Assembly: GCA_030295235.1 (NCBI GenBank)
Contig: AP026133.1
Coordinates: forward strand, 1,054,001 to 1,118,000
Direction: 5' to 3'
Length of the DNA stretch: 64,000 nucleotides
From: Fistulifera solaris
Taxonomy: Eukaryota
Position numbers and translations under genes: made by a program. Positions within the stretch are counted from its first letter, which is position 1. Every line of letters begins with the position of its first letter. The notes beneath the pieces are model-generated. The model saw only the letters and a program-made list of their open reading frames with translations. It had not been told where the DNA came from and searched no databases. Positions 2,204 through 14,985 of the stretch are shown one piece after another.

Positions 2204-3286
2204 ATGAAACAAACGAGTCGGTTTAGCTGCTCACGCCCGTGCGTGGCTTTCCTCGCTCTCATTGCGTTCGTCATGCTGTACTTCTCGCGTCAACAAACCT
2301 TGGATGATCTAGACGCAACGTCGCAAGAAAAGCATAACCATGTCGATATCAATCCTACCTTTGGTGATGCACCGAGTGAGAAACGCAATCCCATTCGTCA
2401 AATTAGTATTTTAGGTGAACGAAATAGCGGTACACGGTGGACCTTTGAGTACGTATCATTTGCTGTCAATAGGATGCAGTTCGTCAATCCCAGATTCTAA
2501 TTGCGTCGTCATTACAGTCACATGCTGGAATGCTTCGGTCATGCCCTGACGGTGAAAAAAGGACTTGTTCGCTATAAGCATTGGTTTCAGTATGAAGACT
2601 CGTCACTTTATCCGCACGATACACTCGTCTTGGCGCAATTCCGAAACCCGTATGATTGGCTTCAAGCCATGCAACGTGTGCCGCATCACAGTCCTGCTCA
2701 TTTGAGTACAGCCGTCGATCACAAATGGGAGATTTTCTTGTCCAAACCGTGGACCATGGAACGTATTGGTAGCGATCTGTGGCCCAATCGAACGAGTGAT
2801 GAAGACAGTCCGGCCAAAAGCTGTCAGCAGAAATTCAAGTATCGTGACATTATTAGTTGCGATATCGAACCCTTACCGCATGAAGCGTACAAACACACGA
2901 TTCGTTATAGTGAACATCAACCCTTTTACGAAATGCGAAATGATGGCTCGGGGGAGCCGTACGCCAATATCATGGAAATGAGAACAGATAAGATTCGAAA
3001 CTTTCTATCGGTCGTGGACTATGAAGGTGTCGCGGATGTGTGGGTGTTGCAATACGAGTATCTGGTTCACAAAGGCACGCAGAATTTGATCGATAAAGTG
3101 GCCGAATGGACGGGCATTGAACCAAAGTGTCAAGCCAAAGGATCACAGGTCCGCAAACCTAAAAAGACGAGAATCGTACCGACCGAAATGGCACGATATA
3201 TTCGTGAAAATCTAGATTGGGAGGTCGAAAGGTCGATCGGATACAACATTGATTTGAAACGGGAAGAAGTTGGCTGGGATTGGTAA
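2204..3286 (+). CDS. Type II membrane protein with sulfotransferase-like P-loop domain (intron 2449-2517)
   Basis: N-terminal TM segment, ILGERNSGT (5'-PSB-like loop) and FRNPYDW (3'-PB-like motif). A GT..AG intron joins the two ORFs in frame. Confidence 0.65.
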
Positions 3287-3367: not shown

Positions 3368-6263
3368 TTAAACATTTCGCAAGGTTTCCATTGTGACAAT
3401 CGCATCCTTATCAGCTAGGCAACTTCCGACAATAGCTCCCGTGGCTCCAGCTTCCTTTATTTGCTTGACGTAGTCCGTGGCATCATCACCTATCAGTCCT
3501 ACTCGGCCTTGAACCAGAAATTGTATGTCTCCATGTCGCTCCTTCAGCTCTTCAAAAGTGTCGCTTTTTAATAGAGAAAGAGCTTGAGCACCTGTTAAGT
3601 CGTACATGTAGTCTTCAAGGAGACGGTTCGAAAATATGAGGCCGTGAATGCTGCCCTTTTCGAGAGTCATTACGGCCCGCATCTGTACTTCCGAAGTCAC
3701 CTTGACGAATACTTGAAACTGCAAACTAGCTGCAATTTTAGATAAATACAGAAGATCTTTCGCCGCAAGTGCTCCAGCTATAAGGGATATGGCATCTGCC
3801 CCCGCGAGTCGAAGTTTGTACAATTGATATGGGTACAGGATCAAATCCATTGCTAGCACGGGCGGAACAACAACTCCATCTTCTGACATCATGTCAAGTG
3901 CTGCTTTTGCGGTCTCTTCTCTCACAGTTTGTATATCACTAAGGGAACCGCCAAAGAAGATAGGGTCGCAGTTAACCGCCATGGCTGGGGCTCCAGCCTG
4001 AACGAAAGTTCGGGAGAGCTTGGCTAGATCGTATCGACGTCGAAGCGATCCACCAACTGGGTCAGATTTTTTGAATTCCGGGATTATGATGAATTGGTCG
4101 TTTTGTGCCGCAGATTTAAGACTGGCAACAAAGTCACGGGGCTTGGGCATAGTTGGATCCGTTGCCGAAAGTCGGCACTGAGAAACTAAATTCGCCAGAG
4201 GAACTCGTTCACGGAATCGATCAACTTCTGTTTCTTTTTCCCACATGAATTCTTCCAGCGCACTCGAAGCGACGGCCGTCTTTTCAGCAACGCTCCATTC
4301 GACAGTAGAAACAGTTAAGGCCCTGCCCGAATGAATTTCTCTTCGTTTCAAAATGAGTTCGCCATCTTCACCCCGAGGTGCTTTCGAGGCCAGAGTCTGA
4401 GGACCGATCTTCGTTGCAGCGTCGTCTCCGTCGTTTTCGTCATCCGAGCTTTCTTTTGTGTTTGAGCTTTCTTTCTTAGCGTCTATCGGGTTATAGATTG
4501 CCCTACCGGAGTAACTGCCAAAGAGGAAGTATCCGGTAGCACTGCCTTGTATGGTTGTTCCAGACAACAGTACTCCATTGGAAAAGAAGCCACTGATGCA
4601 ACTGACAGATGGCAACATCCTGGCCGCAGTGCTACTTTCGTAATACTGCTTGCCCTGGAAAAACTTGCTACCACGATCGAGTGTAGGAATGATGAGGCAA
4701 CCGGCTGCCTCAAACTTGACTTTGGGCTTGTCTTCTTCAGCCGCAAACTGCTCACCTAATAACCTCTTCTTATAGCCGATCCACAGAGCCTCTATTTCCT
4801 TTTTCGCAAACTCGCTTTCACGCACAAAGAATCGCATCCGGTTACCAGGTGTAATATTTACTTTACCCAACGGTAGTGTGACGCTGCCGTCCTTCATTCC
4901 AGCCGTAGCAACCTGATGAACCGTGAACCGATGTCCTTGTCCCTCTGCTAGTCTCAAAAGTTCGGAAACGGTCCGTGCCGTCATGGGGCCCTGCTGCTGT
5001 TCTAGTCCGATCAATAAAGTACGTCTCATGAAGGCTTGATCATCATCCGAAAGCGTCCTCATCAGAAAATTGGCTTCCGCCAAGACTGGCTTGGGGATTC
5101 TGGCCTTGGCATATGCTTGCGCCTGTCGGGCTTTGACATCCATATCCTTTTCGTCCACTTCGTCGTCTTCGTCGTCCTCTTCTTCTGCTGACTCTTCCGC
5201 GTCTTTCAGTGCTTCCGTAGCTGCCTCATCCAGTACAATAGCATTGATGGTAGAATCTTCGCCTTTGAGAATTTGATAAATGCCTCCCACCGCCTTGGCA
5301 CCTTGTGCCGTCATGGTTTGTATCTGCACATCACCCTGCAAAATGACTCCAATACAACCATTGGTGTGGAAGGTAGGATTGGAGGAATGTGCCGACCATT
5401 GATAGAGTTTGGCACGACTGAGAGACGACACAGTCGACGCAATGCCCCCACAATTGTGCATTGGGGGAAATACGTTTCAATCCCAACAACAGTGCATCTA
5501 CTTGGGTCGAGAAGGCTGGACTGGGCACGAGAAGAAAGGATGTTGGTAACTGATCGAGAGTATCTTCCGCGGCAGCACTGCGTGGCAACAAACCGACTTC
5601 TTTTTTCCATTCCGTGGCGTCTAATTGTACCATATCGTCGTCCGGTAAATCCTCCAAATGAAACGTGCGAACGGTCGTATCCGGAAAGATCGCCATGGTA
5701 ATAATGACCGCCGGAATCCCTTCGTATTCGACAGTATCACACGCTTGAATAATAATATTCGGCTGATCCGCGGTCTGAACGGCCGGGGCACTCCCGATGC
5801 ATCCCGCCACAGAACTCCCAATGAGATTTTGAATTTGGACATTGTACGCAGACGCCGCCGCCAAGATGGTCGGTACCGTCAATGTCGATGGTTGTTGCGT
5901 GCCACCATCGTACAGCGACGACACGGATACCATGGCTAAATCAACTTTGAGCGGTTGGTCTTCCGTGGCAATGGGTAGAGAACGCAGCGCCATGGTGACG
6001 GCTTCTTGTAAGGCTTCGACGAGATTGGAATGACTCGAATGACCTGTACTCATCGCCATGGGTTGATTGAGATCCATATATTCCGTTGCGAATGCATCGA
6101 CAGAGAGATATCGGTTGAATTGTTGTCGTGAAGCATGATGATAAGGGTTGACATGTTTGTGGTATCGGTGAGGAAGCGCAGTGTACAAAAGAGTGAACGC
6201 ACGAGTCTGTGGCACAAACGAGGTGCTCATGAGCAACAATAAGGAAGCCCAAGGACGCAGCAT
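3368..6263 (-). CDS. Plastid-targeted FIST_N/FIST_C + IGPS (TrpC)-like fusion; frameshift near 5455
   Basis: Presequence MLRPWASLLLLMSTSFVPQTRAF. FIST motifs LIGSSVAGCIG, GGIAST, TAQGAKAVG, RMRFFVRE and ISGFFSNG. IGPS motifs LEEFMWEKETEV, PRDFVASL, IIPEFKKSDP, FFGGSLSDI and AGADAISLI. Confidence 0.8.
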
Positions 6264-6881
6264 TTTTGCCAACAGTACTGGTATGCTACCCTTGTTTCTT
6301 CTTTTAATACAAGTACATTGTGAAACCATTTTTTCTGCTGTCGAGACGCGTTTCTCTGCAACACTTGTACTTGTATGTAGTACTGGTACGGTAATGAACA
6401 ATTCTCAAGTTGTTTTGACTGTCTTTGTTCTTTGTCCACCGCAAACAATAAAATACTAATGAGAAAAAAAAAAGAGGCAACCGGAAAAACGCGAGGCGAC
6501 CGAAGAGCACGCGTTTTCGTCCGTCCATCAGCCGTTGTCACTGTGACAGAATAAGGCTCGCGATCATTCACCCACTCGAAAATGAGTAGAGGGTAGACGT
6601 ATATCGTACAAAACCTACATACTTTGTAAGGTAGTACTTGCCAATCCTCGTTGTCGTCGTCCGCTCCTCCGCAACACCATGGCGTGCAAGGATAAAGAGA
6701 AATACCTGGTACCGTGTCATCATTTCATTCCATGCATTCAACAAAAGGTACCAACACTGTTAGGACTACCATTACTGACTAAGCATTCGAGTTCGTAAAC
6801 GAAAGACTTTTGTTGCGGAAAAAACAGGAAAAGGAATTTCACAACAGTTCATTCACACACAACAACAACAACCAACAAAAA

Positions 6882-7911
6882 ATGGACGAAACCGTCGACA
6901 CCCCGTCACCCGACAGGAATGCCACAACAAGTACCGCCGCGGCCACGCCCCTTCCTCCCCTATCCTCTACTACATTAGATCCCGAAAAATCATACGCTGA
7001 TCTAGAAGCGTGGTTGGCGAAATTGACACAAGGAACACCCCTTGCGGAAGCCGAAGTCAAGTCGTTAACGGAACTCGCCCGAGAGCGTTTGTTGCAGGAA
7101 TCCAACGTACAGCCGGTACCGGCACCCGTCACCATTTGTGGGGATATACATGGTCAATGGCATGATCTCATGGAGCTCTTTCGTATTGGAGGGAGTGCGC
7201 CAGACACGAATTATTTGTTCATGGGGGACTATGTCGATCGGGGCTACTATTCCGTTGAAACCGTTTCCTTACTCGTTTGCTTGAAAGTTCGTTACCCCGA
7301 TCGAGTGTTCATTCTTCGTGGGAATCATGAATCACGACAAATTACGCAAGTCTACGGATTTTATGACGAGTGTGTTCGAAAGTATGGATCCGCGAACGTG
7401 TGGAAATTGTTCACCGACTTGTTTGATTACTTCCCCCTGACGGCCGTCGTCGATAACGCTATTTTCTGTCTACACGGTGGTCTATCGCCGAGTATCGATA
7501 CATTGGATCATGTCCGACAACTCGATCGCGTGCAAGAAGTCCCACACGAAGGTCCCATGTGCGATTTGTTGTGGAGTGACCCCGACGATCGGACCGGGTG
7601 GGGTATTTCGCCACGGGGAGCTGGATTCACCTTTGGAGCCGACATTTCCGCCGCATTCAATGCTCGCAATGGACTGACGACCGTAGCGCGGGCGCATCAA
7701 CTGGTCATGGAGGGGTACAATTGGAGTCACGAAGGTGCTGTCGTGACCATCTTTTCGGCGCCCAATTATTGCTACCGTTGTGGGAATCAAGCGGCCATTT
7801 TAGAAGTCGATGAAAATAGAACCAATCAACAGTTTTTACAGTTTGATCCGGCTCCGCGACGAGGTGAGCCGAGTTCGCTCCACCGAAAAAACTCCCGATT
7901 ACTTTTTGTAG
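6882..7911 (+). CDS. PP2AC: Ser/Thr protein phosphatase 2A catalytic subunit
   Basis: GDIHG, GDYVDRG, RGNHE and [11 protein letters not shown] motifs. Removing one A from the run at 7886-7891 restores the RKTPDYFL* C-terminus. Confidence 0.96.
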
Positions 7912-8075
7912 TTGCGCCTTCAGAGCAAGTACAATCTTAAAATGGTTAATGTTGAAAGTAGTTGCTCTAGCTTGTGCTTTTGTGCCAATCCTGTGCAAGA
8001 TTACTCGTTTGTAGTATTCAGAAAAAGTCAATGTATAGGCTAGAGTATAATAAACGGATTATACTGAACATGCTA

Positions 8076-9383
8076 TCAATAAGCATGCGAATTGCTTCCC
8101 CATCGTCCGGTGGTCTGGCTTGTCCCCGACTCCCAGTCATTTGGCGTGTGATCCTCCTCCTGATAACCACGATACCGTCGATCACTGATTGTTGTGTTGG
8201 TTTCAAAGTCAACATAAAGAGGCGGATTCGTCCTTCTTGCTGATCGGTATTTCGAGGAGTGCTCCGAGCCATCGTTTTCTCGGTAAAGCCCGGCACCTGA
8301 CCTTTGACTCGCTGTATCGTAAGGATTATCTGTGTAGTACGGTCCTGGCGGAGAAAGTTGAAGGTTGGTATGTTGAGTATTGTATGCTTCGAAGAGGACA
8401 AAGGATCGGGCAGTGCGCTCGGAACTTACCTCGTCCACTCATGGCTGGTATTTGATTCGGGTCATGTGAATACAAATACGCTTCTCCGTATGAAAGGGTG
8501 TCACTAGCGTACTCGGGAGGATAGCCATGACTGAGATCTGTATCATGAATGTGCACGCCATCGGTATATATTTCTGGTCGTGTTGTGCGTCTCTTCATGC
8601 CAACGAGAAGAAGCAAGACGGTGAATGCGGTGAGGAAACTGAGCCCCACAATCAACGGTACGTTGGGTGGCTTAGTTGAGCCTGTTGGGTTTGTAATTTG
8701 ACCGTCTTCCACTGGTTCACTGAGAATGCTTTTATCATTTTCTGTAACGTCGCTGTCACCCTCGTCTATATCTAGATCGGTCTCGGTCTCACTCTGGGTG
8801 TCTTCATCGGCGTTAGTGTCGGGTGGCTGCTCTCGGTTATACTTCAAAAGTTCACAGTGAGGACCATAAAACTCTTTTGGACAAACACAACCAAGATGGC
8901 GATATTCGTTGTTGATGGTGGTGTTCCCAGGTGCCACCTGTGCGCTAATAAAACTACTTTTGCATTTTCCTCCGTTGGTGCAAAAGGATGTCGATTCATT
9001 CGGATCATACTTGTCGGCACAATATTCAGTGTAGGGATTACGGCACATCAACGCAGCGAATCGGCTGACCTCTTCGGCTACCGAACAGTCACACATCATT
9101 TCTCCTGTGTCTCGTTGTCGCTGACATAGGCGTCCGTTTTGCATTTTCCGTCGCTCTGGCATGCTTCTACCGGGACATCGCACGCAGCACCTCCATACCC
9201 CACATCGCACACACATTCCTCAATCATCTTTCCACTCTGCACTAAAGCAGATAGCTCTTCTTGGTTATTCGACACGAAACTACAGATTCCGTGTTCACAG
9301 GATAGCCCGCATTGTTCGTTGGCTGCCAACGAAACAATTCCATGGAGAAGAACCGAGACAATTATAGAGGCTGATAAGCGCAT
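8076..9383 (-). CDS. EGF-like repeat single-pass membrane protein (frameshift near 9141; intron 8345-8429)
   Basis: Signal peptide MRLSASIIVSVLLHGIVSLA, EGF motifs CVCDVGYGGAAC and CVCPKEFYGPHC, an acidic stalk, TM helix LIVGLSFLTAFTVLLLLVGM followed by KRR, and a Tyr-rich tail. Confidence 0.8.
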
Positions 9384-10639: not shown

Positions 10640-13600
10640 TCACTCGGTTGCGTCGTTGCTGTGGAGACGATCAAACAAGGCATTCGCGGAAACAATTTCC
10701 GAGTACAATGAATCTTCTCCCAAGGGCATCTCCGCGAGCCCTTCCAAGATGGATGGATCGGATTTGATGACTGCTAGAGAAACTGGCAGCGGAGGACTTT
10801 TGTAGTGCATGCCCATTTTCTTCGAGAGCTCGTGACAGAATGCTGCTACTTCGGAACGACTCTCTTGAATGGCGAAAATTTCCTGCCACGCTAGTCGCTG
10901 TACAGGGATGAGTCGGGCGAATGCAAAATCTGCAGAAGTTGAAGCAGCTTGGTTCACTTACATGTTGTAAAATCGTGATATATTCTGCGTCGGTGAAAAT
11001 TTGATTGATACGTTAGAAGAGAAAACGCGACGATCGGAGACTCTACTTTCTGATTCTTACCTATGAAACCCTGCTCGACTTGGATTCTCAAAACGCGAAA
11101 TGTTATGAAGCTAGCCCATTCCCGAGGTCTATTTCGAATGAACTTCCGAAGAGCCTCTTCGTACACTTTCAACCGCTCGTACGGGACGCTCGTCGAAAAT
11201 TTCAAATTTATGAAAACAACAGCCTTAGGAGATCTAGCGGCGTTGATGATTCTGGAAGAAGCCATCGACCCGTTGGAGATCGTGGCTCTTTCATTGTTGG
11301 GTTGAAAAACCACTGTCGTCGTGTACAATGTGACATCCTAGAGAGACAGAGTGGCTCTCAGAAATCGACCGTGGAAAACGGAAAGAACCACAACAAAGAC
11401 TTACCGTCACGATCCACCCAAATGATCCATCGAGGCTGGAAGCAAAGAAAAATGAGCGAGACATCGACGCACGATTAAATCGAATGATAGTACTTACTTG
11501 GAGTCAGACTGCACATTCGATACGTGAATCCTGTCGCCAATGTCGTACTACGTGAATGATTAGGATGTCCGCAGAACAACGAAGTTACGGAAACATGCGC
11601 ACGTACCGGTCGCTGCAGCAAAACCATCAGCCAACCCTCGAACATTCGAGAAGAAGCCGAACCAATCATGAACGCGAAAGCCAGTACGAAGGATGACAAG
11701 GATAAAAATAAAGCCTTCCAAAAGACTGCTGTTAGATTGCAATCACACCTCTCACATTCAAAATTATCGACTTACCAACGGGCTTAACCCTGCGAGTCAT
11801 GTCAGGTACATATATATTGCCCTCACGCGCTCGAAACAGAATACATACCAAGCTGGTTCAGAATGATACATAAAGCAACCAAGTAAAAGACGACGTCGAT
11901 TACGTTCTCGAAGGCCTTGTCAATCTGAACGTCAAGTGTCAATAACATTGCTTGAAAGTGCTCATATACGGTACGATGTAGATACGTTTTTTACCTTTTC
12001 GCAATTGCGGACACCAGCGCTTAGTAGCTTTGCTTCCTTGTATACAGCATCGAAACTCTAAAGAAAAATGGACCGACAACATAGTTAGGGCGTCGGGTGC
12101 AGTGTAACAGTCTATCGCACATTATGACCCACCTTCACAAAGTCTAAAAGCTTGAGTTTGCCATTTCGGTCAGGACGTAGGATTCGAATCAATTCTTTCA
12201 GCGCAACCTCATCCAAGTCACCGTGGTCATCAATTGCAGCCAGAGCCAAAACGTCGAATGATATCTCCATCGTATCTTCGCCTTCTTCATCGAGACCACG
12301 AAGCGTTTGAAAAAGTTTTTGAGCATTAATAACTAAGTTTTCTCTCGAGGTAGTCTCTCCAAAAGGAGTTCCAAACATAAATCGGTCCTTCAAAACCTTC
12401 AGCGAACATTCAAACTGAGAGACAGCGCTGATGGGTATTGATTCGCCAATGCTATATTCTTTTTCGGGCTCTTCCCAAAAGCCAAGAAGTTCGTTGAGTC
12501 TTGTCTTCTCAGCTTGACTCAAGACTCGGTGTCCCTTATTTTCCTCGGCGTCGTGTATTATAAGACCATCGCCCCACAGATCGTGTACATTCTCCGATGC
12601 AAAGGACACTTTCGTGGAGTTGTCACATTTACCTTGACCTTCCATATCAGAGCCCTCACGTGTTTGATATCGAACCAAATGAATATACTGATCAGGATGG
12701 ATACGCAGTCGACGTTTATCACGCGTGCGGCGGCTACAAGTCGTTAACCGAGCTGCATTGTTGGTAGCTATGACAGCCTTGCTTAGCAAGCATATTTTGC
12801 CCATCACCTTCGTAAGATCTTCGGCATAAAACCGATACGTTTTCCGTCCTAAAGTCACTCCTAGCCACAAGCGCTTGACCGAGACGACCAACGTGATTGC
12901 TACCGCTATGCAAAGAATGCGAATATATAGCTCACTACTAGGGACCGAGCCACTTGGATTTTGATAATTGAACAATCCGAAAACATCTTGCCAGTAGGCC
13001 CAGTGATCAGCCCATGGGGTCTTGCCTGAAAGAAAGCAGAAATCTAGTATTCCCCAGAAAAAGACAATAAACGGCCATCCTTTTGATTGGACTATGAACA
13101 AAGCTGCGAGCTTGCCCACGCATTTTGGCGCTATCTGAGTGTTCACACAACAGTAGTCAACAATGATCAGTTGAATCAATGCTGCCGCGCTGAGTAGCGT
13201 TAACTGACGGACAATGAAAAGAAGCCACCATGATGCCGACGCAGTTTGCGCCTGAAACTCCTCTCCCTTGACGTTCATCAAGGTTGTTTCATTCGTCTCT
13301 GGGTCAAAGACAAACGTGACGTTGTAGTTCAAAATACCGGTTGGAGAATTGTCAGCCAAATAAAAAAGAATGAACGAAATGCCGATCAATGGAGCGACAA
13401 TCGCTATATACGCCTTTGCGTAATAGCGCAGTATGTTGAACCGAGACGACAAGAAGCTCACAAAATTAATGATATGCTTTCGATCCATGCAGTTCCGAGC
13501 ATTTTTTGACATATTATTCCATACCCCAGTTTGTTTGGGAGTAGGTTGGCCTAAATAAGTCGGGCGTTCTTGATGTGAGCCAGTCTCTTCTTCGTCACAT

Positions 13601-14985
13601 CCTTCCTCAACATGCGATAGTTTCTGGTCAACGACATTTCCATTTTCAGCGCCATAAGCAAATTTTCCACTTTGCTGGCTATGTCTGGACGTGTCATGTT
13701 TCCCCTGCTCGATGTCGTTGATAACACTGCCCGTATCTCCCCTTTCTCTGTCTGACTTGACATTGCGAAAGATTAGAGCAGCATTTTCAGCAAAAGTTGC
13801 TCCGGAGCTGAAATCCGCTGAACGAGGCTTGAGATCTTGCTCCGAAACGGACCTGTTTTCATCCAGTCCCCCAAGCACTTCTGTAAGATCCATCAATTGA
13901 GACTCTATTGTGTTTTGTCGTTGATGGGAGCGCCGCGTAGGTCTTATGGGCACGGGCATTTCGTCAGGCGTTTCATTTCCGGCTCGCTTATCTTCAATAA
14001 ACGGTTGAAATTCGGAGTCGTTGTCACCTTCATTGTCCATGTCCTCCGGACTGGATTTTTGTCTACCGGCCGGTGAAACATAGTTAGTGTCGTCTGTTAT
14101 ATTTGTCGTCAACGCCGAAGTGTCGGTTTCTGCTCGATCTCTGTTCGCATTCTCTTGCTCCTCCAGCACTCTTAATATTAGTGTTTCCGCTTCTGTTTCG
14201 AGTGGATTGCACTTCAAGACGTCATCCAAAACGACTCTCCGAGGGTGCGGCGAATTGGTGAGAAGCGAGAAAGCCGTCGCATCGCTCAAAGAAATAATGC
14301 TTTTGGTAGGCCGGTGTGTGCGATGCATGGGGTGATCTTTCGACGTTACATACGAACCCAGACTGAAATCTTCGGCTCGAACTGGAGCGCGATGACCCTG
14401 ACTCTGTTCGGCTTCCGAAAAGATATTGCTACCCAAATCATGACTCCATGATACATTGCGATGGTGACCTCGAGGACGATGCAAGTTGTTCGCAGCAATG
14501 TTGGGAATCGACAGATGCATTGTTCGGTTGGTCATGTCATTCGATGGCATGGGATTTGTTTCAGTGATCGAGTTTTCCAATGGATGGTCAGCGGCCCGAA
14601 TGCTCGCTCTTAAATGTGCATAAAAGTCATTCGTCCTAGAAAGATCCGCATAATATCCCTGTTCATATGAAATCCCGGTATTTGAATCATTGTAATCGTT
14701 CGCTCTCGTAGTTTCGTCGGTTGCATCTTTGGTCGCTTTGACGAAATCGGGCGACGGCTGCTGCTGCTGATGATGATGTTGATGATTCATTGACTCGGAC
14801 GAGTTGTTGTGTTGCGGCGCACTCGGACCGAACAAATCTGAAACAGAAGGAACGGGGCGATGAGTATTGGACCGCGGGATCGTGTTGGCATTTTCCATGG
14901 AAAGATTCGTTACGCCCAGAGTTTCAAGACGTTCCATCAACTCTTGTGTCGTGTCCTTTGCCTCATCGGTTGCTTCCACCGACAT
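10640..14985 (-). CDS. MscS-like mechanosensitive channel with EF-hand, 10 exons
   Basis: Exons 14985-12133, 12057-11995, 11924-11849, 11789-11776, 11714-11607, 11547-11498, 11435-11405, 11337-11061, 10984-10962 and 10897-10640 splice in frame. They give LSLSSFVLAFAFMIG, QRPYDIGDRI and IINAARSP; EF-loop DRNGKLKLLDF. Confidence 0.9.

Follow-up and report, generated by a model that had tools for sequence, protein, structure and literature searches.

Gene organization and the frame breaks

[quoted passage not shown] A tblastn search placed the annotated 965-aa protein "indole-3-glycerol phosphate synthase [Fistulifera solaris]", designated P0001 here, at 6263..3371 of this strand. The protein contains, in order, a plastid presequence, FIST_N, FIST_C, an acidic linker and an IGPS-type barrel. 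None of the aligned family members has the general acid or the general base of IGPS, which makes P0001 very unlikely to serve as the IGPS of the tryptophan pathway. The features of the gene are as follows.

6263..3368, minus strand: whole coding sequence in a single exon, 965 codons plus the stop codon at 3370..3368 (tblastn of P0001 and open reading frames)
6078..6263, minus strand: bipartite plastid presequence, residues 1-62, with a hydrophobic signal peptide ending at TRA/F (A22-F23)
5231..6077, minus strand: FIST_N, residues about 63-345, spanning both assembly gaps (PF08495, hhalign and FBXO22 fold)
5477..5478, minus strand: first 1-nt deletion, with a G missing between TTG (L262, 5480..5478) and the AA of E263
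5444..5449, minus strand: second 1-nt deletion, with the G run 5449..5445 one G short and the frame shifting at G274
5114..5230, minus strand: acidic low-complexity insert between FIST_N and FIST_C, residues 346-384, EEEDDEDDEVDEKD, left unaligned by hhalign
4466..5113, minus strand: FIST_C, residues about 385-600 (hhalign through residue 582, Pfam matches of orthologues and FBXO22 fold)
4376..4465, minus strand: acidic low-complexity linker, residues 601-630, with a predicted local distance difference test score (pLDDT) below 50 for residues 605-627
3371..4375, minus strand: IGPS-like module, residues 631-965, comprising a highly conserved pre-barrel segment, the alpha-0 helices and a (beta/alpha)8 barrel

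In the window as assembled, the gene is divided between two overlapping minus-strand open reading frames (ORFs), 3368..5461 (697 aa) and 5331..6401 (356 aa). The best match of the 697-aa ORF in a word-index search was P0001, which was 100% identical over the ORF, and a second F. solaris protein, P0002, was 95% identical to it. We take P0002 to be the homeolog of P0001; F. solaris is allodiploid. Residues 1-262 of P0001 are encoded in a first frame (6263..5478), residues 263-273 (ETYFPQCTIVG) in a second frame and residues 275-965 in a third, which is the frame of the 697-aa ORF, while G274 straddles the second gap; reading through the coding sequence of the window needs one added base at each of the two sites. 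The initial annotation had described one gene with a single indel near 5455. That there is one gene held, and the single indel gave way to two 1-nt gaps in both the tblastn alignment and the contig described below. The junction between FIST_C and the barrel lies within the uninterrupted 697-aa ORF, as had been stated, according to the ORF list.

Logan contigs of four public runs were aligned to the gene, where X1 denotes the same organism, possibly the very data set from which the window was assembled, and X2 a metagenome with a related organism. A 1782-nt contig of X1 (record 8) matched 5402..6263 with 0 mismatches and exactly 2 gaps, and its bases restored the P0001 frame exactly. An extra C was found behind 5477 in X1 (1 contig, depth 15.7/15.7), with the same base in X2, and an extra C behind 5444 was present in the contigs of both X1 and X2. 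Because the same-organism contigs carry both missing bases, the frame breaks are assembly errors of the window and the gene is intact. The aligned contigs of the four runs had no joints across the gene, and consequently nothing in them pointed to an intron. One candidate, a 34-nt GT..AG mini-intron spanning the break, was considered and rejected; it would remove the invariant GGIASTVSSLS, and the contig has two inserted bases instead.

Both deletions (5444-5478) adjoin or sit in G runs, and other apparent frameshifts in the window may also be artefacts. In the X2 relative, whose likeness is 90-99%, 6 nt and 3 nt are deleted in frame at window positions 5185 and 5635; one deletion falls in the acidic insert and one in FIST_N, and they represent length variation in low-complexity parts.

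Domain architecture and overall fold

The Pfam scan of the intact P0001 protein revealed IGPS (PF00218) at residues 670-897 (E 1.9e-25; score 90 bits, cut-off 27) and FIST_N (PF08495) at residues 145-340 (E 3.5e-11; score 43.8 bits, cut-off 23.2). The broken ORFs of the window gave IGPS alone (E 8.2e-26) and no FIST, because FIST_N spans the frame break. In the same scan of the intact protein, FIST_C (PF10442) gave no match in P0001; it was found below threshold in three orthologues (the best, P0061, with 26.9 bits against a cut-off of 28.5) and above the cut-off in P0175 from Vitrella (31.1 bits). When a profile of 37 full-length homologues (A1) was compared by hhalign with two bacterial FIST_N+FIST_C proteins (A4), P0001 residues 71-582 were aligned with residues 16-397 of 406 with a probability of 99.1% and an E-value of 1.3e-18. 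An AlphaFold2 (AF2) model of residues 63-601 showed a pLDDT of 85.5 and a predicted template modeling score (pTM) of 0.86, and FBXO22 accounted for all 4 of its matches to Protein Data Bank (PDB) structures at E<=0.001, the best with an E-value of 2.5e-10 and a template modeling score (TM) by target of 0.63. The identity of FIST_C is settled by the hhalign result, the FBXO22 fold and the presence of FIST_C in 9 of 12 divergent relatives described below.

The whole-protein model of P0001 had a pLDDT of 74.8, and the top Foldseek matches were without exception IGPS structures or designs derived from IGPS, with a TM by target between 0.76 and 0.86; 3tsm, 6y88, 3t44, 1pii and 1igs came first. The combination of FIST_N, FIST_C, an acidic linker and a TrpC-like barrel that the initial annotation had recognized was thus borne out by Pfam on the intact protein, by hhalign and by the fold matches to FBXO22 and IGPS, with FIST_C reached in P0001 through hhalign rather than through Pfam. 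The PF00218 match covers profile positions 1-203 of 254 only.

Within these domains, FIST_N contains the invariant GGIASTVSSLSR motif. The acidic insert that follows it is poorly conserved, with a pLDDT below 50 for residues 362-375. In FIST_C, GFFSNG is retained and PTLDRG replaces the CxGRG motif of bacterial proteins; hhalign placed PTLDRG against the bacterial CCGRGEG motif, which confirmed the reading given in the initial annotation.

A junction of a signal peptide with an A-F pair is a hallmark of diatom plastid import. The presequence of P0001 was poorly conserved after the signal peptide, with a pLDDT below 50 for residues 11-57. The column of F23 held F in 81 of the 91 homologues with a residue there, and the preceding column held A or G in 82 of 90. 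Among the divergent relatives, nine N-termini looked complete by eye, and the equivalent site was F in seven, Y in one and L in one. The plastid targeting proposed earlier is a prediction that fits the diatom-type presequence, with A/G-F at the predicted cleavage site.

Catalytic positions in the barrel

According to what was reportedly established by Hennig et al. in 2002, whom PMC6380595 cites, a Lys and a Glu serve as the general acid and the general base of IGPS. The Lys has been called essential (PMC11528492). We mapped the catalytic positions onto P0001 by phmmer against the IGPS structures of the PDB, by BLASTP against E. coli TrpC (NC_000913.3; E 9e-15) and by MAFFT L-INS-i, and all three agreed on the following sites (Ss, S. 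solfataricus numbering).

4070..4078, minus strand: E730-F731-K732, equivalent to Ss E51/K53, kept
3848..3850, minus strand: M806, site of the general-acid Lys (Ss K110), strand 3
3701..3703, minus strand: K855, site of the general-base Glu (Ss E159), strand 5
3623..3631, minus strand: S879-N880-R881, replacing the canonical N-x-R (Ss N180, R182)
3506..3511, minus strand: Q919-G920, replacing the canonical E-S (Ss E210/S211)

The ECKKASP segment of canonical IGPS reads PEFKKSDP in P0001, with both E and K kept. In contrast, LCKDFI reads LAMDLI, so that the general-acid Lys is replaced by M806, and LTEVS or LVEV reads FVKVT, so that the general-base Glu is replaced by K855. GINNR reads IFSNR, with the Asn replaced by S879 and with N880 and R881 kept, and SESG reads VQGR, with the Glu replaced by Q919; the substrate-hydroxyl ligands of IGPS, N180 and E210/S211, are not kept (S879, Q919-G920). 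The initial annotation had listed the retained E51/K53 pair (PEFKK) together with K110M, E159K, GIN.R to IFSNR and ESG to QGR; E730/K732 was recovered in all three alignments, the codon coordinates given in that annotation were right and the alignments agreed with each change. The general-acid Lys and the general-base Glu were restored in none of the phmmer, BLASTP and MAFFT alignments, and the P0001 barrel, as aligned, is without the general acid and the general base of IGPS. Two residue pairs, E/K on strand 1 and N-R on strand 6, are still present in the barrel, as are the Gly-rich strands 7 and 8.

Conservation across diatoms and selection

The homologue set comprised the best 120 of 297 proteins with E<=0.001, obtained from 8000 scored candidates in the word-index search with the 697-aa ORF, and the counts in this section refer to these 120 listed homologues. 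PF00218 was found in all 120 and PF08495 in about 90 by hand count. Most were about 900-1100 aa long, with some shorter truncated forms, and those with names were diatoms: Fistulifera, Phaeodactylum, Seminavis, Cylindrotheca, Nitzschia, Pseudo-nitzschia, Skeletonema, Chaetoceros, Epithemia, Mayamaea and Amphora.

In the MAFFT alignment, the column of the general-acid Lys (806) contained S in 111, M in 3, I in 3, L in 2 and N in 1, with K in none, and the column of the general-base Glu (855) contained T in 72, S in 34, K in 6, M in 4 and C in 2, with E in none. K732, D807, N880 and R881 were each present in 120/120. Position 730 was E in 106, D in 11 and Q in 3, position 879 was S in 119 and T in 1, position 919 was E in 96, Q in 8 and D in 2, and position 920 was G in 107. 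The commonest pocket pattern was EKSD[T/S]SNREGR, which occurred in 71/120, or in 81/120 when D730 variants were included, and the eleven pocket positions were near-invariant and polar across diatoms.

The combination of M, I or L at 806, K at 855 and Q at 919 was limited to 8/120, the Fistulifera-like sequences P0001 to P0007 and P0010, two of which had T or M instead of K at 855; the two F. solaris homeologs differed at 806, with M in one and I in the other. The family consensus at 806, 855 and 919 is S, T/S and E. As the M/K/Q states are confined to the Fistulifera-like clade, these substitutions are, on the alignment, a second, lineage-specific step that followed an older catalytic loss. 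The initial annotation had suggested searching other diatoms for the fusion and for the same substitutions; the fusion proved to be conserved, and K110M, E159K and E210Q turned out to be peculiar to the Fistulifera clade rather than traits of the family.

For the selection test, the window was compared with a second, homeolog-like set of X1 contigs, in which the 40 best-supported base differences were listed and 141 more lay beyond these. Among the 40, 36 were synonymous and 4 were non-synonymous. The median identity to P0001 was 0.17 for the presequence, 0.47 for FIST_N, 0.63 for FIST_C, 0.21 for the linker, 0.74 for the pre-barrel segment with alpha-0 and 0.54 for the barrel. These values indicate that the protein is under strong purifying selection, with the barrel maintained rather than decaying. 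Neither a loss of the fusion nor relaxed selection on the barrel, which the initial annotation had named as grounds for abandoning its proposal, was observed; the fusion is diatom-wide and 36/40 of the listed differences are synonymous.

Divergent relatives and the link to Vitrella and AMR1

When 1.84 billion cluster representatives were searched exhaustively with a profile, 6848 matches at E<=0.001 were obtained, 169 of them at E<=1e-30. The 150 matches listed included twelve divergent long forms, which were mostly full-length at about 780-1010 aa, with one (P0193) truncated at the N-terminus. Individual scans of the twelve revealed IGPS in 12, FIST in 10 and FIST_C in 9. Across 19 FIST-fused members whose barrels were aligned, the count was 0/19 for the general-acid Lys and 0/19 for the general-base Glu; the Lys column contained S, A, M, I, D or N and the Glu column T, S, V, C, A or K, with one member, P0258, unreliable owing to its aberrant C-terminus. 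E. coli TrpC and the canonical plant-like P0223 kept both residues in the wider alignment. P0223 itself (511 aa) is made up of a canonical plant-type IGPS repeated in tandem one and a half times, the repeated segments being identical, and is probably an assembly or gene-model artefact.

The sole divergent member with a name was P0175, a protein with FIST, FIST_C and IGPS domains from Vitrella brassicaformis, a close algal relative of malaria parasites. P0001 and P0175 were collinear (residues 65-962 and 76-929, respectively) with 26% identity and an E-value of 8e-76. In the ESM Atlas, the cluster nearest to P0175 was the diatom FIST-IGPS cluster (score 0.96), and otherwise only diatom clusters and ordinary IGPS clusters were returned. 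The statement in the initial annotation that no characterized protein with this architecture was known is not supported, as the fusion is annotated in many diatoms and extends collinearly to Vitrella. No apicomplexan sequences were among the word-index matches of the divergent profile (3 proteins) or of the Vitrella barrel region (2 proteins). An InGPS fused to a cyanobacteria-derived COG4398 was reportedly described in P. tricornutum by Jiroutova et al. in 2007.

Tang et al. (2019) reported that PfAMR1, whose TIM barrel is closest to IGPS, is required for apicoplast biogenesis, and that a single canonical IGPS (Vbra_4894) is accompanied in Vitrella by two homologues lacking the key residues (PMC6380595). 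The IGPS-like genes persist in parasites that are auxotrophic for tryptophan and were lost along with the plastid (PMC6380595). Neither PfAMR1 nor the IGPS-like genes complemented E. coli trpC9800, whereas the canonical Vitrella IGPS did (PMC6380595). PfAMR1 (PF3D7_1363700) has 790 aa, a signal peptide and a putative IGPS domain with no conserved catalytic residues (PMC3637116), and its depletion impaired or blocked isoprenoid synthesis and raised 1-deoxy-D-xylulose 5-phosphate (DOXP) and 2-C-methyl-D-erythritol 4-phosphate (MEP) (PMC8022201). The word "FIST" had 0 occurrences in the text of Tang et al. (PMC6380595). In the literature searched, no paper was found that called the diatom fusion non-catalytic or tied it to AMR1, a result that covers the running text of PMC6380595, whose S6 Fig and supplements may name the Vitrella genes.

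By elimination, P0175 is probably one of the two IGPS-like Vitrella proteins of Tang et al., as there are three Vitrella homologues and P0175 has neither the Lys nor the Glu. P0001 would then belong with the IGPS-like/AMR1 group of algae with complex plastids. A further step is offered only tentatively, at somewhat less than even odds: the diatom protein may be the orthologue of apicomplexan AMR1, whose N-terminal extension would be a FIST module, and a metabolite-binding barrel derived from IGPS and coupled to FIST would represent an ancient factor of plastid biogenesis or isoprenoid homeostasis, common to the apicoplast and to algae with red-derived complex plastids.

Comparison with other homologous proteins

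We compared P0001 with proteins that share either of its halves. The bacterial FIST_N+FIST_C proteins (PF08495+PF10442), such as NosP and CdpA, have the same two-domain module over its full length, and the GG-A-S and GFF-NG motifs are kept. The differences are that P0001 has the acidic insert and conserved extra helices between the two halves, that CxGRG reads PTLDRG and that the C-terminal His, the reported heme ligand of NosP, is absent. Additionally, bacterial FIST is joined to a kinase or cyclic di-GMP (c-di-GMP) domain, whereas the FIST module of P0001 is joined to a barrel derived from a metabolic enzyme. Ligand binding by the FIST-FIST_C modules of NosP and CdpA is little understood, and the ligand is unknown for most bacterial members (PMC8846402). 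The FIST domain of human FBXO22 (8ua3, 8s7d) is the only solved fold that matched the N-terminal module, with about 11% identity; it recognizes a protein substrate in an SCF ligase, in contrast to P0001, which has no F-box.

The barrel has the same (beta/alpha)8 fold and N-terminal helical extension as canonical IGPS (TM by target up to 0.86), and at 21-25% identity the E/K pair, the strand 6 Arg and the PYQ motif are kept. The differences are the general-acid Lys, which is M in P0001 and S in the family, and the general-base Glu, which is K in P0001 and T/S in the family, together with N-x-R, which reads S-N-R, and E-S-G, which reads Q-G-R, in P0001. The canonical IGPS reported for diatoms is fused to phosphoribosylanthranilate isomerase (PRAI), whereas the P0001 barrel is fused to FIST. 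In a tree built from InGPS-PRAI fusions, the diatoms group in a clade with strong support, and Ectocarpus has both an InGPS and an InGPS-PRAI gene (PMC3942023). An IGPS-PAI fusion is described in Nannochloropsis (PMC3499364), and P. tricornutum has two IGPS ORFs, which the review does not tell apart (PMC3901274).

The closest likeness is to the IGPS-like proteins, namely PfAMR1 and the two Vitrella homologues. These likewise have an IGPS-derived barrel without conserved catalytic residues, a large N-terminal extension and plastid targeting led by a signal peptide, which for P0001 is predicted. They coexist with canonical IGPS in photosynthetic species, as the diatom protein would, going by the papers on other diatoms. 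They differ in that the FIST identity of the extension is unmentioned in PMC6380595, and the comparison made here is between P0001 and the Vitrella member, not PfAMR1. A degenerate TrpF-TrpC of Leucomyxa plasmidifera (PMC11528492) is also an ochrophyte plastid protein in which the essential TrpC Lys is mutated, and it is taken by its authors as non-catalytic; it differs in having no FIST and in belonging to a non-photosynthetic lineage without the rest of the pathway.

Neighboring genes

A catalytic subunit of a phosphoprotein phosphatase (PPP)-family Ser/Thr phosphatase is encoded at 6810..7940 on the plus strand (Metallophos, E 6.7e-43), in divergent orientation, with about 546 bp separating it from the FIST/IGPS-like start codon; no functional link is inferred. 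The four other neighboring ORFs scanned had no Pfam match (E<=0.001). These included 12112..14985 (957 aa) and 8326..9216 (296 aa), both on the minus strand, and 2204..2500 and 2501..3286 on the plus strand, which share a frame, have one stop codon between them and may be parts of a single gene interrupted by a short intron or by a sequence error. A functional linkage to neighboring genes was dropped, as nuclear gene order is uninformative and only the phosphatase has a Pfam match.

Possible function and alternative explanations

Our preferred explanation, to which we assign a probability of roughly 0.65, is that P0001 is a plastid-directed IGPS-like protein in which an IGPS-derived barrel fused to FIST_N+FIST_C couples a plastid metabolite signal to plastid biogenesis or homeostasis rather than to tryptophan synthesis. 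The barrel would no longer make indole-3-glycerol phosphate; the canonical IGPS-PRAI fusion, reported as a separate gene in diatoms, would carry out this step. The old active-site pocket may still bind a phosphorylated small molecule, as suggested by the retained E/K and N-R pairs and the Gly-rich strands 7 and 8, and the FIST module would add another unit for binding a ligand or a partner, similar to bacterial FIST sensors and FBXO22. Together, the two units could link a metabolite signal in the plastid with its biogenesis or homeostasis, a role shown genetically for PfAMR1 in the apicoplast. For F. solaris, we lean toward binding or regulation over a new catalytic activity, because S, T/S and E became M/I/L, K and Q in the Fistulifera clade.

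Several points weigh against this explanation. The near-invariant polar pocket of most members fits a new enzyme as well as a binding site. The assignment of the catalytic positions comes from sequence alignment and not from superposition of coordinates. The separate canonical IGPS is known from papers on other diatoms, not from F. solaris itself. The homology to PfAMR1 is indirect, as it runs through P0175, which was itself placed by elimination. Finally, the complementing proteins of Tang et al. were undetected by western blot (PMC6380595), and since protein expression was unverified, their negative complementation result is weak.

An alternative that we consider unlikely, yet a serious one, is a neofunctionalised enzyme, whose barrel would catalyze another reaction on a phosphorylated plastid metabolite with FIST as an allosteric sensor. 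The recurrence of EKSD[T/S]SNREGR in 71/120 listed homologues (81/120 with D730 variants) and the strong purifying selection on the barrel are consistent with it, as are the usual position of bacterial FIST modules upstream of enzymatic output domains (PMC8846402) and the specific metabolite pattern that follows AMR1 loss, with DOXP and MEP raised (PMC8022201). However, M/I/L, K and Q arose jointly at three pocket positions in the Fistulifera-like clade (8/120), position 806 differs between the homeologs (M and I), which is unexpected for a catalytic residue, more distant members carry D, N or A there and V, C or A at position 855, and no reaction could be proposed from the sequence.

We regard as improbable a genuine FIST-regulated IGPS isoenzyme of plastid tryptophan synthesis, in which other residues replace the Lys and the Glu. 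Database sources annotate P0001 as IGPS, its Pfam IGPS score is far above the cut-off, most of the barrel is kept, including the Arg and the E/K pair, and a review counts the two P. tricornutum IGPS ORFs without distinction (PMC3901274). Lys 855 of Fistulifera could in principle act as the acid; however, it is present in only 6/120 listed homologues, and it therefore cannot be the solution of the whole family. The general acid and base were found in 0/120 listed homologues and 0/19 wider members, in agreement with the earlier proposal that this would not be a tryptophan-biosynthetic enzyme. Furthermore, the Vitrella IGPS-like genes failed in trpC complementation where the canonical one succeeded, relatives persist in tryptophan-auxotrophic apicomplexans (PMC6380595), and a canonical IGPS-PRAI fusion is reported in diatoms (PMC3942023).

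The FIST module shares the FIST_N+FIST_C architecture of NosP (PMC8846402), but a NosP-type sensor of heme or nitric oxide (NO) is highly improbable; the Cys residues of CxGRG are replaced in PTLDRG, and the C-terminal-motif His of the two bacterial FIST proteins (H388 of A4) aligns to G574, which is invariant in diatoms; the initial annotation had likewise seen no His in this motif. The two frame breaks and the absent catalytic residues could suggest a frameshifted, decaying pseudogene with a ruined active site, but the chance of this is practically negligible, given that the public-run contigs carry both missing bases, 36/40 of the best-supported differences are synonymous and the loss of the same catalytic residues is conserved across diatoms and Vitrella.

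Implications for diatom and apicomplexan plastid biology

The architecture was already known; what is new is the recognition of the FIST module in the IGPS-like family. Databases and reviews count proteins of the P0001 type as diatom IGPS isoenzymes, and this annotation is to be corrected; since the protein is very unlikely to work as IGPS, it should be dropped from metabolic reconstructions of diatom tryptophan synthesis. A diatom-wide gene is tied to the chromerid and apicomplexan IGPS-like proteins, among which AMR1 is essential for the apicoplast and its biochemistry is unknown. Recognition of FIST in the family gives a concrete hypothesis of ligand-gated or partner-binding regulation, for which free-living, genetically tractable hosts such as Phaeodactylum are available. 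The correlated pocket changes in the Fistulifera clade represent a natural experiment on which pocket residues matter. If the orthology to AMR1 is true, the biochemistry of AMR1 would be opened to study in tractable diatoms.

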